Of a stretch of 64,000 nucleotides of DNA, positions 55,200-62,411 are shown one piece after another. Position 1 is the first letter of the stretch. Each line of letters begins with the position of its first letter. The notes beneath the pieces were generated by a model, which ran no database searches, was not told the DNA's origin, and was given only the letters and a program-made list of their open reading frames with translations. This DNA is from Escherichia phage AV124, in the sequence record OR352954, one strand, 5' to 3'. The position numbers and the translations under genes are program-made.

Positions 55200-55460
55200 T
55201 TAATTAAGTGTTAAATTTCCAACAGTTTCAATGAAGCCGAAGGGCATAGAGAATACCTTCACCATATAAATCTTGTCCTTACCATCTTCATAGTAAGGCA
55301 CAACTACAACATCATCAGCTCCCAGAGGAAGCATAGTCATAATCATACCAGAATCTACAACGTATTCAAGCACAGCTTCTTTGGTGGCAGGAATTTCTTT
55401 CTCTGTTTGTTTGCTTTCCAACAGGCCACCACGGTGTTGACGAATACGGATCGTTTTCAT
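55200..55460 (-). CDS. hypothetical protein
   Basis: ORF. Confidence 0.45.
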   Translation of the reverse strand: MKTIRIRQHRGGLLESKQTEKEIPATKEAVLEYVVDSGMIMTMLPLGADDVVVVPYYEDGKDKIYMVKVFSMPFGFIETVGNLTLN

Positions 55461-56056: not shown

Positions 56057-56450
56057 CCAAGTATTTCTCCAAATGAGTGAGTACAACCCCTTGGGCATAC
56101 TCTTGAGATGCATCATTGTGGTGAAGAACAGCCAGATCACATCCAAGTTTGTGCAAACTCCTCTCGAATGGAGACAAGTGTGTCATCATAACTTCGACCA
56201 GACTAAGCTCTTCTTCTGTGATGTGGAGGGGATCATCCGTGAAATCCCTGGAGATGAGAATCTCTCTCTCACCTCCTTCTCCGTGACCATAGACCTCGAC
56301 AATCCTCCTGTTACAGAAAATTTCGTACTGATAGCCGTTCCAATCTTGACCGTCTTGGGCTTCAAAGTTCACAATGAGGCAACAACCAAGCCCCAACAAG
56401 AGTACCTGGAAATCCAAATTGTGAACAATTTTTTTATTTAAAGTGTTCAT
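56040..56450 (-). CDS. hypothetical protein
   Basis: ORF; co-oriented with neighbours. Confidence 0.4.
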   Translation of the reverse strand: MNTLNKKIVHNLDFQVLLLGLGCCLIVNFEAQDGQDWNGYQYEIFCNRRIVEVYGHGEGGEREILISRDFTDDPLHITEEELSLVEVMMTHLSPFERSLHKLGCDLAVLHHNDASQEYAQGVVLTHLEKYLDAKKE

Positions 56451-57873
56451 CTAAGTCCACAGCTTTTCCAAATGGTGGAATCCAACCCTTGCGCCCACCG
56501 CAGATAACCCAGAGAGTGTTGTACTTACGCCCCCAGCTTGAGCCACGATGTCTCAGGTCCTCTATGTAACCATCTGTGAAGATTATAACCTCTTTTGCCT
56601 TAGGAATAAACTCATCGATGTACTCAAAAGCACATGCAGCAGTTGTCCCACCAGTCGATGTAACTCTGTAATCCAGAATTTCCTTTATGTTATCCTGTGT
56701 GTACACGTTGACGTTGCCAACTTGGGTTGACCAACAGAACAATGTGATACGGAAACATTGGTACAGGGTGCTCAAAGCGATTATCTCATTGAAGATACGT
56801 GTCATTGTTTGACGAGAGATAGAACCTGAAACGTCAAAACCGATTACAATATCAACAGTCTCTGTTCTTTTTCTGCCAGGCATAACCATGAACTGTTTCT
56901 TAGTTAGAGCGCCGTGATCACGAAGGACTTTTGTCATTCCTCCTGATCGACGACCTAAGACCCGATAAGTACGGTCTGATTTAACACGAGAAATCATTCG
57001 CTGCTTAATGATTTGCAGGTAATTAATCTTCGGTTTACCTTTTTGTGCGATTAATTCTCTGGCTTCTTTTGGCCCTTCACCACCTGCGGCTTTCATAGCA
57101 GCGTCAATCATGTCCTCAGACCAAGACATATCCTCATCTTCCTGATCAGCAGACTTCTGTGGGTGTGGGTCCGTATACCCCAGGATGTCAAGGTCTTTAT
57201 CATAATCCCCTATGTGCGCTCCCAGCGGCTTACCTTCACCGTCACCAATCTCTTCCGGTAGTAGAGCATAAATCTCTTCAGCCGTTTTTCCCTCATATTG
57301 GTAATCGCAATAACAGTAAGCAAGGAAACCAAATTCTTTTGACTTATCAAACACTTGTCGATGAGTGAACCATTTCAAACTCTCGGCTTTCTGGCCCAAC
57401 TCCTTGACTAGGTCAGTATTGATATAGTGATCAGCGGCGATGTTGAAACGTTTGCGATCAAATGTTTTCCCACGAGACATGTGGTCGTTGGTGACATGGC
57501 GGACCTCATGCATCATGATGAATACAATTTCTTTCATGGTCTTTTGACGATAAAATACATTGATGTACTCTTTGTAATCATCTTTTTGCTGTTGTGTCAT
57601 CATCGGATGCTTGTCAATACGAGCAAAGACTTTTTTCTTGCGATCAGCAGGCATACCCATAATGAACTCTGGGTTAAAGTATAGATTGCGATGATCAGTT
57701 GCTGCGGTTGGAAGCCATGCACAGTCAACTATCAGCGGCATACCGCTTAATAATGTCCCATAGAATGGTCGATTAGTAAGTAAAGCGATGCGGGCAGACT
57801 GAACTCTCTTCAGTGCTTCATCAGCCAGTTCCATAATGCTTTCTTTTTCATCAGTATACATTCTTATCTCCAA
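56434..57873 (-). CDS. HExxH metallopeptidase-like + von Willebrand factor A domain protein
   Basis: HEVRH motif in N-terminal half; vWA MIDAS VIGFDVSGSIS in C-terminal half. Confidence 0.55.
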   Translation of the reverse strand: MEIRMYTDEKESIMELADEALKRVQSARIALLTNRPFYGTLLSGMPLIVDCAWLPTAATDHRNLYFNPEFIMGMPADRKKKVFARIDKHPMMTQQQKDDYKEYINVFYRQKTMKEIVFIMMHEVRHVTNDHMSRGKTFDRKRFNIAADHYINTDLVKELGQKAESLKWFTHRQVFDKSKEFGFLAYCYCDYQYEGKTAEEIYALLPEEIGDGEGKPLGAHIGDYDKDLDILGYTDPHPQKSADQEDEDMSWSEDMIDAAMKAAGGEGPKEARELIAQKGKPKINYLQIIKQRMISRVKSDRTYRVLGRRSGGMTKVLRDHGALTKKQFMVMPGRKRTETVDIVIGFDVSGSISRQTMTRIFNEIIALSTLYQCFRITLFCWSTQVGNVNVYTQDNIKEILDYRVTSTGGTTAACAFEYIDEFIPKAKEVIIFTDGYIEDLRHRGSSWGRKYNTLWVICGGRKGWIPPFGKAVDLDEHFK

Positions 57874-57910
57874 GAAAAAAGGCCATCAGTTACGATGGCC
57901 TTATTATAGG

Positions 57911-58171
57911 TTAATTCATCACCCTTTGCAATGCAATTTGGGGTAAAAATTCATCTATCCCCTCAACCCTGAAACCCCACGCTAATTGTGGACCAGGCGC
58001 TCCCGGAAGGTGAGGAACAGCAAACAAGACGATCCCATCAATAGCTCCGCGAATCGCGTTCTCTGTGAAAGTCTCTACCAGATCCCCGAAATTAAGACCC
58101 GGCCTGAAGCCAGCATTCAGCATTTTTTGCTCTGGCGCGGATGCAGGCCTGCCCAAGATATCTTCGTACAT
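57911..58171 (-). CDS. hypothetical protein
   Basis: ORF. Confidence 0.4.
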   Translation of the reverse strand: MYEDILGRPASAPEQKMLNAGFRPGLNFGDLVETFTENAIRGAIDGIVLFAVPHLPGAPGPQLAWGFRVEGIDEFLPQIALQRVMN

Positions 58172-59037
58172 TACACCACCTTGTTGAGCATTGCTGCAAC
58201 TTTTGGCAGGCTCAGGCCCGTCTGGATCATCAGTTGGGTCATCGCAGTTTCCATTTTCTTGGAGACAATGATGAAATTATCTTTGGCAAAGCCAATGTTC
58301 AGATCCAGAATCAGAATAGATTTCGGTTCTTCAGTTAATTTTTCACCAGATAAGGCACAGGTGTTGCGAATGTATCGTGCCTTAAATTGCGAATAGGTGA
58401 CCGATACAGACATTCCAGCCTCGTGGAAGGTGTTGCAGTAACGGGCATACGCCAATGCAACAGAGACGTCCTCAGGCAACTTCTGGGCCTCTTTCTGAGC
58501 ACTTGTCTCTTCCGCCGCAGGTTTTTGGTTGTGAACATGTTCTTCGGCATTATCCATAGCGTTCTGCATTGTCTCTTCAGTATTCATTTCGTTCTCCTGT
58601 TGTGGGATATATTTGGTTTTCAGTTTTTCAAGGTGGTCTTTGGACATGTTCAACATCATGGCCTTTACTATTTCGCGATCTAAAGGATCTTGAATCAGTA
58701 TAGATGTTGTCTTGTCAACTAAACGGTCCTTAAGTTGGTTTGCGCGAAGCATAACCACACAGACGTTTCCCCGGACATACCCTTTCGAGTCATCGATTCT
58801 CTCTATAGACGGATACCTTGGGTTAGCTTCCTCACCATCATTCGCGATGTTGGTACTGAAAGGTAGCCCCGTGTAATCACAAGAGCCGTGGCCCAAAAGC
58901 TTGAATCCGAGCATACGCATATCTTGCATTGTTAAATCACAGTCAAGGCCCCGTTTTCGAGCATTCAACTTCTTATGCTTCAAACGATTCCTCAACTTTT
59001 CCACTTCTTCAGGTGTAAACTCTTGTAATACAGACAT
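58171..59037 (-). CDS. HNH-like endonuclease-related protein
   Basis: CDYTGLPF...PSIERID...GYVRGNVCVV..ANQLK with a second degenerate copy. Confidence 0.4.
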   Translation of the reverse strand: MSVLQEFTPEEVEKLRNRLKHKKLNARKRGLDCDLTMQDMRMLGFKLLGHGSCDYTGLPFSTNIANDGEEANPRYPSIERIDDSKGYVRGNVCVVMLRANQLKDRLVDKTTSILIQDPLDREIVKAMMLNMSKDHLEKLKTKYIPQQENEMNTEETMQNAMDNAEEHVHNQKPAAEETSAQKEAQKLPEDVSVALAYARYCNTFHEAGMSVSVTYSQFKARYIRNTCALSGEKLTEEPKSILILDLNIGFAKDNFIIVSKKMETAMTQLMIQTGLSLPKVAAMLNKVV

Positions 59038-59072
59038 TTCTAACTCCTTGGGTCTTGCCCGTTCTTAGTAAG

Positions 59073-59140
59073 GTGATTATCACCATTCGGAAAAGGGTTG
59101 TCAACCCTTGATTTCTAAAAAGTGGCGGTGTATCTTTGTC
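59073..59140. promoter_or_regulatory. divergent promoter region with palindromes GGTGAT-T-ATCACC and AAGGGTTG-T-CAACCCTT
   Basis: Two perfect palindromes plus TTGATT-N17-TATCTT between divergent blocks. Confidence 0.4.
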
Positions 59141-59170
59141 CATTATTCGTATAAGAGGGTAAGTGAGATT

Positions 59171-60178
59171 ATGAGCAAAGTAGATATTAATGTAAAACCA
59201 AACGAGGCTTGGAATGAGGAGCGAGATTTCATAGATAAGTTGTTACAAGGGAAGCAGGCTGCTCAAGAGAGATTTCTTTCAACTTTTGAGAGGGACAGAC
59301 ATGTTGACAATCCCATCACCCGCTTTATCGAGTATCTTCGTGGGGTGGGGGATCAGAATCCTGTGTTGGAAATTGTTTTGTCTTGCCTTCATAAACTTCC
59401 CACACATGGCGGACCTTTTTATTGGGAATGGTTTGATGGTAATGATGAGGATGTGATGGATTTCGCTTTTGATATGAATCGGAAGACTACCTCTCATTCC
59501 CTATCCAGTATGGTGGCAGAGCATAGAACACATCGCACAGGCGGAAATCATCCTTGGTCAGATCGTTTAACAGAGACAGTGGAACTTTGTTTTCATGGTC
59601 ATGGGAATAGTGAGGCGTTTAAATGCTCGTTCTGGGATTTTTCACACCGTACCCGCAATTTTCTTTATCATTTGAAGCCTCTTCTTGAGGATATGTCGAA
59701 TGGGGATGACCTTCGTTTAGTTGTAGAGTATGCGAGTCATCAAAGAAATGCCTCGATATCGTGGAAGAATCTCCCTGCTGGTCGATTTGAACTTCTGCAT
59801 GTGAGGCTGGTTTGTGGTGACTTGGTTCTTTACTCTGACTATCTTGAGCCTTCGGCGTTCGATCGTGTTTGTAGCCAACTGAACCATTCTGTTATCAACA
59901 TCATGAACAGAAAGATCGCTAATAAGGCACGTAAAGCAATGTTCGTTTGTTCTCCGAAAGAAACGATGTTCCACTTGGAATATGACCCCAAGCTACAGAG
60001 CATGATGGAGGGGGACTCCCCGACAGAAGAAGAACTCATGATGATGTCTATTGCAGGATATGAAGATGAGTTTTGGCTTGACAACGTAAAATCTTTCGAT
60101 AGACTGAACATAAAACCCTTTAACCTAGAGGAAGCTGTCAAATGGTATCAACAGACAAGAGTTGTATTCAAGCTTTAA
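59171..60178 (+). CDS. hypothetical protein
   Basis: 336-aa ORF from internal ATG of track ORF 59108. Confidence 0.5.
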   Translation: MSKVDINVKPNEAWNEERDFIDKLLQGKQAAQERFLSTFERDRHVDNPITRFIEYLRGVGDQNPVLEIVLSCLHKLPTHGGPFYWEWFDGNDEDVMDFAFDMNRKTTSHSLSSMVAEHRTHRTGGNHPWSDRLTETVELCFHGHGNSEAFKCSFWDFSHRTRNFLYHLKPLLEDMSNGDDLRLVVEYASHQRNASISWKNLPAGRFELLHVRLVCGDLVLYSDYLEPSAFDRVCSQLNHSVINIMNRKIANKARKAMFVCSPKETMFHLEYDPKLQSMMEGDSPTEEELMMMSIAGYEDEFWLDNVKSFDRLNIKPFNLEEAVKWYQQTRVVFKL

Positions 60179-60651
60179 GTCCAGCACAAGAACTTGCTTT
60201 GGCAATTAAAATTGCAGCAGAAGGCCACCTGAATCAGAAAGATAAGGGTGGTAACCCGTACATCCTTCATCCACTGAAGGTAATGCACTACCTGAAGACT
60301 GATGATTTTCAGCTCATGGCTATCGCTGCCCTACATGATGTTATCGAAGATACTGACGTTATGGCGGCTGATCTCGTGATGATGGGATTCTCCAACCGTG
60401 TTGTCTGTGCAGTGGTCCTACTGACGAAGACACCAAACCAGTCACCAGAAGAATATTTTCAGGGTATTGCAAGCAACTACGACGCGGTTCGTGTGAAGCT
60501 TGCAGACCTGCGTCACAACTCTGACGTTCGTCGCCTGAAAGGTCTGACAGATAAGGATTTGTTGCGTGTTCGTAAGTATCACGACATGTATCTTCGTTTG
60601 ACAAAGATGAAAGAACACCACGAAGCGATCAACGTCTTATCTAAACTATAA
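60142..60651 (+). CDS. HD-domain (p)ppGpp/alarmone hydrolase (small alarmone hydrolase-like)
   Basis: HPLKV...IAALHDVIEDT...KLADLRHN motifs of RelA/SpoT hydrolase domain. Confidence 0.65.
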   Translation: MVSTDKSCIQALSPAQELALAIKIAAEGHLNQKDKGGNPYILHPLKVMHYLKTDDFQLMAIAALHDVIEDTDVMAADLVMMGFSNRVVCAVVLLTKTPNQSPEEYFQGIASNYDAVRVKLADLRHNSDVRRLKGLTDKDLLRVRKYHDMYLRLTKMKEHHEAINVLSKL

Positions 60652-60710
60652 AGGAGTGCCACTGATGACAATTAAATCAAGTGATGAATTTGAACTGAGG
60701 GGGATAAAAA

Positions 60711-61088
60711 ATGCCTGACTGGAAAACTACTCTTGACATAAGTGATATATGGTCTAAAAGAAATGGTGAATGCGGCAGAGAAGACTGGACAGACAAGACG
60801 GTGCATGAGCTTGCTAAGGAGATAGCTCGTCGTCTTGAACGGAAATTCCCTCGCGAGTCAAACTATGACAACTGGGATAATGGCTGCGATTATGAGCTGT
60901 GTGATATAATTGGCTATTTCCGGGATGTTTCAACATACCCAGATTGGTTAGCCTCTATTGCGGAATGTGAGAATGAGGGGTATGATGCCGACCCAATTCG
61001 CCATTATACACCCTTGCGGGAATTCAACGACATCATGAAAGATTTTTATGATTGGTGTGATGAAAATCGTGTTTGGGTGGATAAATAA
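60711..61088 (+). CDS. hypothetical protein
   Basis: ORF. Confidence 0.45.
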   Translation: MPDWKTTLDISDIWSKRNGECGREDWTDKTVHELAKEIARRLERKFPRESNYDNWDNGCDYELCDIIGYFRDVSTYPDWLASIAECENEGYDADPIRHYTPLREFNDIMKDFYDWCDENRVWVDK

Positions 61089-61151
61089 TCATTGCAATGG
61101 GGGAGGATCAAATGTATCCTGCTCCCGAATTTCATTTACAGGAGACAAATA

Positions 61152-62348
61152 ATGTCAAGTCGCAACATCTTTTCTGGTAACTGGATCACTTTGCGTGATC
61201 TCCCGCCGCTCGTACAATTTTGCCAGCGTCACAAACGTTCACTGATGATCTTCGGCGGGGCAGGTATTGGTAAAAGTCAGGCTGTGAAGCAAATTGCGGA
61301 TTCTCTTTTCGGGCCTGGTGATAACTTGGTAGACTTCCGCTTGGCTGATAAAGATAACACCGACCTCACCGGGGTGCAGATTCCATACACCGATGACAAT
61401 GGTGTTACTCGCACAGTGTACGCCTTGCCGGATTTCTGGCCTCGTGATCCTAACTGGAAAGGTATTGTGTTCCTTGACGAGCTTCTCCACGCCGAGCCTT
61501 ACCTTCAGAAACTGGCATTCCAAATCATGCTGGACCGTCGAATCGGGACCTACCAGTTCCCTGAAGGGGCTGTACTGGTTGCTGCTGGTAACCGTGCTGG
61601 GGATGGTACTGCCGTGACTGCACTGGAAGCTCCTTTGGCTAACCGTATGATGCTGGTAGAGCTTACCTATAGCGCATCGGTGTTCATCGAAGACTATGCC
61701 ATGCAGAACGGTATTCATTCGTCAATCATTGGTTTTCTGTCTCGTAAGAACAGTGCTATTGAAAACTATGAAGAAATGCTGGATATCGGGTGTCCTTCTT
61801 TCGCCACACCGCGTACTTTAACTTACGCCAGTGATGTATTGTACGATTACGATGCTAATTTGCTGCCTGCCAACCTAGCTAAGGTTGCTCTTCAGGGCTT
61901 CATTGGCACACCTTTAATGGCTGAACTGTGGGCATACCACACTAAGATTCGTAATATGGTCCCGATCGAAGACGTTATGAACGGTACTGCCCAAGACCCC
62001 GGAGACCTTCCATCCGATAGTTTGTGGATTTTAGGTTCCGAAGGTGCTATTTGGTTGCGTAAGGCTATTGCAGATACCAACTACACCGATGATCAGATTA
62101 TTGAATTCTCTGGTAACTTCCTACAGTATCTTTATGATCACTTTATGGACCAGAACCGAGACTTCGTAAGCTCTATTTTCCTGTCGTTCATTAAGGAAAA
62201 TGCATTCGGTAAGGCGCTGTTGACCACTGCAAGCAACCGTGACAAGCTTCCTGCACGTTTGTTGAAGGCAAAGCCCATCATAATGAAAATTATGGCAGAC
62301 TTCCAGGTCAACTACGCTGAAGATATTAAGCTTATCGAAGGAAAATAA
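61152..62348 (+). CDS. MoxR-like AAA+ ATPase
   Basis: Walker A GGAGIGKS, Walker B VFLDELLHAEP, sensor VAAGNRA; AGGAGA RBS. Confidence 0.55.
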   Translation: MSSRNIFSGNWITLRDLPPLVQFCQRHKRSLMIFGGAGIGKSQAVKQIADSLFGPGDNLVDFRLADKDNTDLTGVQIPYTDDNGVTRTVYALPDFWPRDPNWKGIVFLDELLHAEPYLQKLAFQIMLDRRIGTYQFPEGAVLVAAGNRAGDGTAVTALEAPLANRMMLVELTYSASVFIEDYAMQNGIHSSIIGFLSRKNSAIENYEEMLDIGCPSFATPRTLTYASDVLYDYDANLLPANLAKVALQGFIGTPLMAELWAYHTKIRNMVPIEDVMNGTAQDPGDLPSDSLWILGSEGAIWLRKAIADTNYTDDQIIEFSGNFLQYLYDHFMDQNRDFVSSIFLSFIKENAFGKALLTTASNRDKLPARLLKAKPIIMKIMADFQVNYAEDIKLIEGK

Positions 62349-62411
62349 TATTGACAGCCCCTCTTGGGGCTGTTATGCTTCATGTATCAAACAAAACGAG
62401 GATAGACTCAA

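Follow-up and report, generated by a model that had tools for sequence, protein, structure and literature searches.

In the solved couples of a MoxR-type AAA+ ATPase and a vWA-domain partner, the ATPase forms a hexamer, the vWA domain is positioned at its pore, the metal-ion-dependent adhesion site (MIDAS) or the adjoining linker holds the client, and ATP hydrolysis twists the adaptor and thereby remodels the client (PMC13036017, PMC9976466, PMC7159879). Here, we analysed a stretch of 64,000 nucleotides from Escherichia phage AV124 (sequence record OR352954), referred to as the window, which encodes one protein of each kind: a vWA/zinc-metallopeptidase on the minus strand (56434..57873) and a diverged MoxR-type ATPase on the plus strand (61152..62348). 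The two open reading frames are separated by 3203 bp, and the list of open reading frames agrees with the positions, the orientations and the distance of about 3 kb given in a preliminary description of this DNA. We estimate a probability of roughly 0.7 that the products of both genes are the subunits of a single conserved phage machine, composed of a MoxR AAA+ ATPase and a vWA adaptor (the N4 gp24/gp25 family), and that they are probably still co-expressed after having been split.

The pair as such is already recognised, both as gp24/gp25 of phage N4 and as the MoxR/vWA-metallopeptidase pair of jumbo phages described in 2021 (PMC7824862). N4 gp24 (an AAA ATPase) and gp25 (a vWFA protein) of the Schitoviridae are homologous to the two proteins of the window and share with them the two-protein make-up and the non-structural location; they are conserved in N4-like phages, with no function listed (PMC2784036). 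In N4-like phages, the two genes are co-directional and 0 to 0.5 kb apart, whereas they are divergent and 3.2 kb apart in the window, and the proteins share about 21 to 22% identity. The Vequintavirinae proteins, to which those of the window belong, also differ from the N4-like ones by an insert of about 37 amino acids before HExxH and by a longer helical C-terminal domain of the ATPase. The same architecture, i.e. a vWA domain fused to an N-terminal metallopeptidase and accompanied by a MoxR ATPase, was reported for the group 2.2 jumbo phages (Iyer et al. 2021, PMC7824862), and the jumbo phages K64-1, phAPEC6 and GAP32 were matched by both of our queries. That report deals with jumbo phages only, in which the genes are adjacent, and its proposal of a role in virion assembly is disfavoured by the gene neighbourhoods discussed below.

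Among cellular systems, NorQ-NorD and CbbQ-CbbO provide the best structural matches to the ATPase; their partner is likewise a vWA protein with a MIDAS, and they can serve as a mechanistic template (PMC13036017, PMC9976466). In contrast to the phage protein, NorD and CbbO have no peptidase domain; as adaptors they are far larger and possess a defined 'finger', they serve respiratory or carbon-fixation enzymes as clients, and the sequence identity is 14 to 21%. Among viral MoxR/vWA couples, biochemical data exist only for p618/p892 from Acidianus two-tailed virus, abbreviated ATV (PMC4124505). However, ATV infects archaea, its p618 is a component of the virion and its p892 is devoid of a metallopeptidase domain, and the likeness to the phage pair is one of description. 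A MoxR and vWA core is also common to the bacterial vWA-MoxR ternary conflict systems (Kaur et al. 2020, PMC7159879), and some homologues of the ATPase contain PF20030, a MoxR domain whose name derives from the ternary systems with a beta-propeller. In the ternary systems, effector domains are located C-terminal to the vWA domain (PMC7159879), whereas the phage peptidase is located N-terminal to it and occurs in a phage context. A third component of the ternary type (VMAP, inactive STAND, FtsH or beta-propeller) was not found here; no PADLOC match was obtained, and no neighbour family recurs beside the pair in both the split-type and the other loci.

Domain make-up of the two proteins

The leftward open reading frame (56434-57873, minus strand; N4 gp25 family, PHROG 1314) encodes 479 amino acids when it is read mechanically from a TTG. 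The ATG at 57861, with a GGAGA ribosome-binding site ahead of it, is the likely start and yields a protein of 475 amino acids, matching the annotation in phage Ro1. The comparison with Pfam gave 79.9 bits for DUF2201_N ('putative metallopeptidase domain', PF13203; gathering cut-off 23.2) and 41.1 bits for DUF2201 ('VWA-like domain', PF09967; gathering cut-off 26.4), with the peptidase domain at the N-terminus and the vWA domain, which has the expected Rossmann-like fold, at the C-terminus. PF13203 was detected in all 97 homologues found, and PF09967 in all of them except the truncated P0148. The predicted zinc-binding and catalytic motif HExxHxxxxH (HEVRHVTNDH, 57481..57510, minus strand; H122, E123, H126 and H131) was unchanged in an alignment of 31 homologues with identities down to 23%. 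In the same homologues, the MIDAS residues D347, S349, G350, S351, T410 and D434 were also unchanged, including the first MIDAS element DxSxS (DVSGS, 56821..56835, minus strand). The HExxH motif and the C-terminal vWA MIDAS of the preliminary description are thus borne out by Pfam and by the alignment, and its length of 479 amino acids is probably to be corrected to 475. The peptidase domain additionally showed weak profile matches to minimal zinc peptidases, namely MJ1213 (2e-3) and M48 (3e-2).

In proteins of the Vequintavirinae type, whether encoded in split or in adjacent layouts, the insert of about 37 amino acids is located just ahead of the HExxH helix (57538-57654, minus strand; residues ~74-112), and the linker that leads to the vWA domain contains a second insert of about 14 amino acids. 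The more distant members of the 31-homologue alignment have neither insert. Several names attached to this family in the databases were not adopted. The label 'HNH endonuclease' of PHROG 1314, which has spread over many phage records, was rejected for want of domain support, and domain support was likewise not found for the names 'anti-sigma factor', 'DNA repair ATPase' and 'homing endonuclease' of other homologues. In Mydovirus records, the vWA gene is annotated as 'putative metallopeptidase domain protein' or, wrongly, as 'HNH endonuclease', and the second gene as 'ATPase'; rV5-like relatives carry the latter as 'MoxR ATPase'.

The ATPase gene (N4 gp24 family, PHROG 1297) lies within a mechanical open reading frame at 61092-62348 on the plus strand. 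Translation most likely begins with the ATG at 61152, six bases after AGGAGA, which results in a protein of 398 amino acids. The residues of Walker A (GGAGIGKS, 61254..61277, plus strand; G35-S42) and Walker B (VFLDEL, 61467..61484, plus strand; D109 and E110), the sensor-1 residue N147, R148, R165 and the sensor-2 residue R221 were invariant or nearly so in 50 homologues. The arginine-finger motif is included in this set. The protein comprises an AAA+ module (residues ~1-280) and an extra helical C-terminal domain (~285-398), and these approximately 110 additional helical residues have no counterpart in NorQ.

Homologues with 31 to 40% identity to the ATPase (E ~1e-36) contain AAA_3 (PF07726), AAA_5 (PF07728) and, in some cases, PF20030. 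The ATPase itself did not reach the gathering scores of AAA_3 or AAA_5, and the Pfam link to MoxR is transitive because PF07726 and PF07728 are found in its homologues. A profile built from 50 family members matched the AAA domains of midasin (4e-23). The AlphaFold model (predicted local distance difference test score 87.9) contains a putative beta-hairpin after strand 2 (the helix-2 insert, residues 75-91) and a pre-sensor-1 hairpin (~129-136), both typical for the clade. When this model was compared with the PDB by Foldseek, the top 18 matches were all NorQ or CbbQ (E 1.5e-8 to 1e-6; target-normalised template-modelling score ~0.60-0.68). Transitive homology, the midasin profile match and the predicted fold are three independent lines of evidence that agree in identifying the protein as a diverged MoxR-type AAA+ ATPase. 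The MoxR-like ATPase with Walker A/B and sensor motifs that the preliminary description had proposed is therefore supported indirectly but consistently, whereas the domain searches support the vWA and metallopeptidase assignments directly, and neither assignment was contradicted.

Conservation of the pair and origin of its divergent layout

A tblastn search with both proteins over 50,697 phage records retrieved the ATPase in 799 and the vWA-peptidase in 615 of them, with parallel distributions over genera. The matches include records annotated as 'N4 gp24-like' or 'N4 gp25-like' (LUZ7, LIT1 and K64-1), and Bacillus, Pseudomonas, Vibrio, Rhizobium and Klebsiella are among the hosts of phages with the pair. 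Present in about 600 to 800 of the records, the gp24/gp25-type pair ranks among the non-structural gene pairs that virulent phages share most widely. A set of 91 sequences, made up of 80 viral contigs obtained with the ATPase profile and of annotated phage loci, was then searched with both protein profiles. Both genes were detected in 81 sequences, and the remaining 10 are not scorable because they end within 823 bp after the ATPase gene; the pair is thus complete in every locus (81/81) with sufficient flanking DNA. The vWA gene is located downstream of the ATPase gene on the same strand in 68 of the 81 loci, with a median gap of 71.5 bp (52 gaps of at most 300 bp; largest gap 2.9 kb). The distance matrices of the two proteins are strongly correlated (Mantel r = 0.95, reached by 0 of 2000 permutations; r = 0.97 within the group of split loci), which fits co-inheritance and would be expected for any two vertically inherited phage genes. 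The suggestion that the MoxR and vWA proteins work as a pair, made before their conservation had been surveyed, agrees with this co-occurrence and with the domain assignments.

Clustering of the neighbouring open reading frames over all loci did not reveal a conserved third component, i.e. no family was common to split-type and canonical loci; exceptions within the Vequintavirinae are an alarmone hydrolase and one small gene. The same pair in the reverse order was observed in a bacterial chromosome, that of Oxobacter pfennigii (LKET01000016.1, 5974-8991), where the vWA-peptidase gene is followed by a gene for 165 amino acids and then by the ATPase gene. Genes for purine biosynthesis, UvrD and DNA ligase surround it, and the context is not obviously that of a prophage.

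The locus in the window spans a 6.6-kb region with about 90% DNA identity to about 30 Klebsiella and Raoultella phages, among them Ro1, KB57 and Seu621; these are rV5-like myoviruses in the genus Mydovirus (Vequintavirinae), to which the window is assigned as well. Its MoxR-type and vWA-peptidase proteins are 95 to 100% identical to deposited proteins. Only 12 sequences, each of them Mydovirus-, Vequintavirus- (rV5) or Seunavirus-type, showed the divergent layout. The two genes lie 3.2 to 4.4 kb apart in these 12, the distance being smallest in the window, and the canonical N4-type order of ATPase and vWA gene on the same strand is not found in the window. In the Certrevirus phage F5M1E, which belongs to the same subfamily, the ATPase gene is followed by the vWA gene after a gap of 66 nucleotides. 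The order 'alarmone hydrolase ... ATPase' is kept between Certrevirus and the window, and so is the order 'vWA ... 86-amino-acid gene' (55203-55460 in the window). Because Certrevirus maintains the adjacency and the flanking orders are preserved, a single inversion or translocation with its breakpoint exactly between both genes is the simplest history. Judged by gene order, the split divergent layout arose by rearrangement from an ancestral adjacent co-directional operon and is confined to part of the Vequintavirinae.

Each of the 12 split genomes, but no other locus, has a gene for an Srd-like protein of 288 amino acids at the new junction. The other intervening genes vary, with three extra small genes in Ro1 and a fucosyltransferase gene in place of the hydrolase gene in rV5-like phages. 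Both partners are nevertheless retained in 12/12 split genomes, with all catalytic and MIDAS residues intact. The preliminary description had correctly noted the opposite strands, but it missed that the pair had been described before, that adjacent co-directional genes are the usual layout and that the split is derived. The new point is modest: the split layout is derived and limited to part of the Vequintavirinae, and both partners are strictly retained in it. The window adds little on function, and its contribution is an evolutionary one. The strict retention of a physically split pair argues that co-translation or operon linkage is dispensable, and these naturally separated variants are useful for expressing or deleting each partner independently.

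Possible function and competing explanations

With the identified domains, the conservation of the catalytic residues, the strict co-occurrence and the ancestral operon as a basis, analogy with NorQ-NorD and CbbQ-CbbO would predict complex formation, ATP-driven remodelling and proteolysis. The ATPase would form a hexameric ring, on which the vWA domain of its partner would dock, and the metal-ion site of the MIDAS would grip a target protein by an acidic residue. The adaptor could then be twisted or stretched through ATP hydrolysis and thereby remodel the target, which, or else the adaptor itself, would subsequently be cut by the N-terminal zinc-peptidase domain. As the phage adaptor contains a zinc peptidase with an invariant catalytic glutamate, ATP-assisted capture and cleavage is the most economical reading. 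In the rV5-, Mydovirus- and Seunavirus-type lineage, the inversion or translocation would have placed the genes in two divergent transcription units, and both are probably expressed together in a non-structural (early or middle) programme, since both units start from one intergenic region of 133 bp (59038..59170).

Several results weigh against such a machine. A Pfam scan of the ATPase up to E 10 gave nothing usable, with no family at E <= 0.01 and AAA_14 at E 0.13, and a direct sequence search of the PDB returned only weak matches to Clp D2 domains. A Clp-like identity was dropped because the profile and the fold evidence both favour MoxR. The 'finger' insertion that NorD uses was not identified in the small vWA domain of the phage model, and correlated divergence, as stated above, is the general expectation for vertically inherited genes. 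The literature searched contained no experimental data on interaction, ATPase activity, proteolysis, essentiality or expression for the phage family, and the genome-wide CRISPRi-ART screens, consulted for essentiality, cover only T4, T5, SUSP1 and PTXU04 and not EdH4 or N4. The preliminary description had placed a divergent promoter region between the two genes. In the 133-bp gap, a near-consensus sigma-70-like site facing the leftward unit was indeed found by pattern matching only (TTGACA-17-GATAAT, 59104 to 59076, minus strand; 11/12 consensus matches), but no comparable or convincing site faces rightward, and co-expression of the pair is for this reason an assumption.

Two other explanations concern the target of the pair. 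It was proposed that the homologous pair of the group 2.2 jumbo phages acts in virion assembly with proteolytic processing, citing ATV p618/p892 (PMC7824862); the ATPase would then be a chaperone of head or tail assembly and the peptidase would process structural proteins. In ATV, the MoxR protein p618 binds the vWA protein p892 as well as tail proteins, and p892 stimulates the ATPase activity of p618 (PMC4124505). Against this, the pair is located among non-structural genes in every annotated genome examined: it adjoins helicase and DNA polymerase genes in LIT1, is close to gyrB in PBS1, shares a unit with rIIA in the case of the ATPase gene of the Vequintavirus phage Mangalyan, and is located near the Srd-like gene and the alarmone hydrolase gene in the window. 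Support from virion proteomes was not found, and p618 is not accompanied by a peptidase fusion and stems from an archaeal virus, so that we regard a role in assembly as unlikely. The consistently non-structural position is compatible with takeover of the host or counter-defence, where the MIDAS would capture a host regulator, a defence protein or a stress factor, and the ATPase and the peptidase would inactivate it early in infection. The neighbourhood is also rich in genes for host manipulation, including an Srd-like anti-sigma homologue, a (p)ppApp/ppGpp hydrolase and, in relatives, rIIA. A local resemblance of the peptidase active site to Lit (NCBIfam), a zinc protease that cuts EF-Tu, points in the same direction (E 1e-4, 21.6 bits), but it is confined to the HExxH region and far below the family threshold of 274, and it is kept as a lead only. 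Conservation over phages of Bacillus, Pseudomonas, Vibrio, Rhizobium and Klebsiella, however, would require a universal host target or fits a target within the phage better, and no PADLOC or anti-defence family match was obtained. We consider such a takeover function possible, with a chance of clearly less than one half.

The remaining two explanations question the peptidase activity or the cooperation itself. By analogy with NorQD, CbbQO and CobST, the pair could be a chaperone for metal or cofactor insertion, and the 'peptidase' domain would then be a module for binding or metal handling. The closest solved structures, NorQ/NorD and CbbQ, do serve to insert metals or to reactivate enzymes (PMC13036017, PMC9976466). 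The invariance of the HExxH glutamate, however, speaks for hydrolytic catalysis over metal holding alone, and the loci do not share a linked metalloenzyme that would be a candidate client; insertion is therefore improbable. That the two genes no longer cooperate in the Vequintavirinae and took on separate roles after the split could be suspected from the opposite strands, the distance of 3.2 to 4.4 kb, the variable genes in between and the promoter-like site that the vWA gene may have of its own. Their retention with intact motifs in all split genomes, their closely correlated divergence in this group and the fact that neither protein has gained or lost a domain argue against it and render it highly improbable.

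A more specific form of the proposed MoxR/vWA machine, which we find doubtful, is a new kind of two-piece AAA+ protease whose substrate would be chosen by the MIDAS site instead of a degron-binding pore. It would degrade or remodel a single conserved protein of the host or the phage during early or mid-infection in phages as different as the N4-like, rV5-like, jumbo and PBS1-like phages. If this were true, the split layout in the Vequintavirinae would permit separate regulation of the subunits. Knowledge of the target of the pair would fill a gap in phage biology and show how a MoxR machine acts when its adaptor carries a protease.

Neighbouring genes and transcription signals

Between the pair, five genes were counted instead of the three given in the preliminary description; the additional ones encode 86 amino acids (57911..58171, minus strand; PHROG 10489) and 125 amino acids (60711..61088, plus strand; PHROG 6318). 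The 125-amino-acid gene is located directly upstream of the ATPase gene and occurs in 10 of the 12 split-type loci. The gene for 288 amino acids (58171..59037, minus strand; PHROG 3118) belongs to a family labelled 'HNH endonuclease', and its product also matches the Srd anti-sigma family phrog_1400 (1.6e-22), whereas no Pfam, NCBIfam or PDB match was obtained. The earlier naming as HNH-like thus holds at the level of the PHROG labels, as Srd-like or degenerate HNH-like, but is not backed by Pfam or the PDB. The product of this gene is no part of the MoxR/vWA machine.

On the plus strand, the gene for 335 amino acids (59171..60178; PHROG 10920) is limited to Mydovirus- and Seunavirus-type loci, and searches of Pfam, NCBIfam and the PDB sequences gave no match for its product. 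Next to it lies the small alarmone hydrolase gene (60142..60651, plus strand), and its identification in the preliminary description is confirmed. The HD-domain protein that it encodes has the (p)ppApp hydrolase 7smg as its best solved relative (3.6e-27), well ahead of MESH1 and of SpoT/Rel hydrolase domains, and a hydrolase gene is found near the MoxR gene in 10/12 split-type and 3/3 Certrevirus-type loci. Domain evidence was found neither for the PHROG label 'tail protein' (phrog_10489 and phrog_6790) nor for 'thymidylate kinase' (phrog_10920), and both labels were rejected.

Upstream of the ribosome-binding site of the vWA gene, pattern matching identified a stretch (57879..57931, minus strand) with a promoter-like site (TTGCAA-17-TATAAT, 57931 to 57903), located between the 86-amino-acid gene and the vWA gene and directly abutting a GC-rich hairpin with a T6 run. 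A transcript initiated at this site would be devoid of the 5' arm of the hairpin. The hairpin and the T6 run could stop transcripts arriving from upstream while those started locally read through. At the other end of the locus, six bases past the stop codon of the ATPase gene, a perfect GC-rich palindrome of 8 bp was observed (62354-62373; ACAGCCCC TCTT GGGGCTGT), and it overlaps a promoter-like site (TTGACA-17-TATGCT) that faces the next gene.

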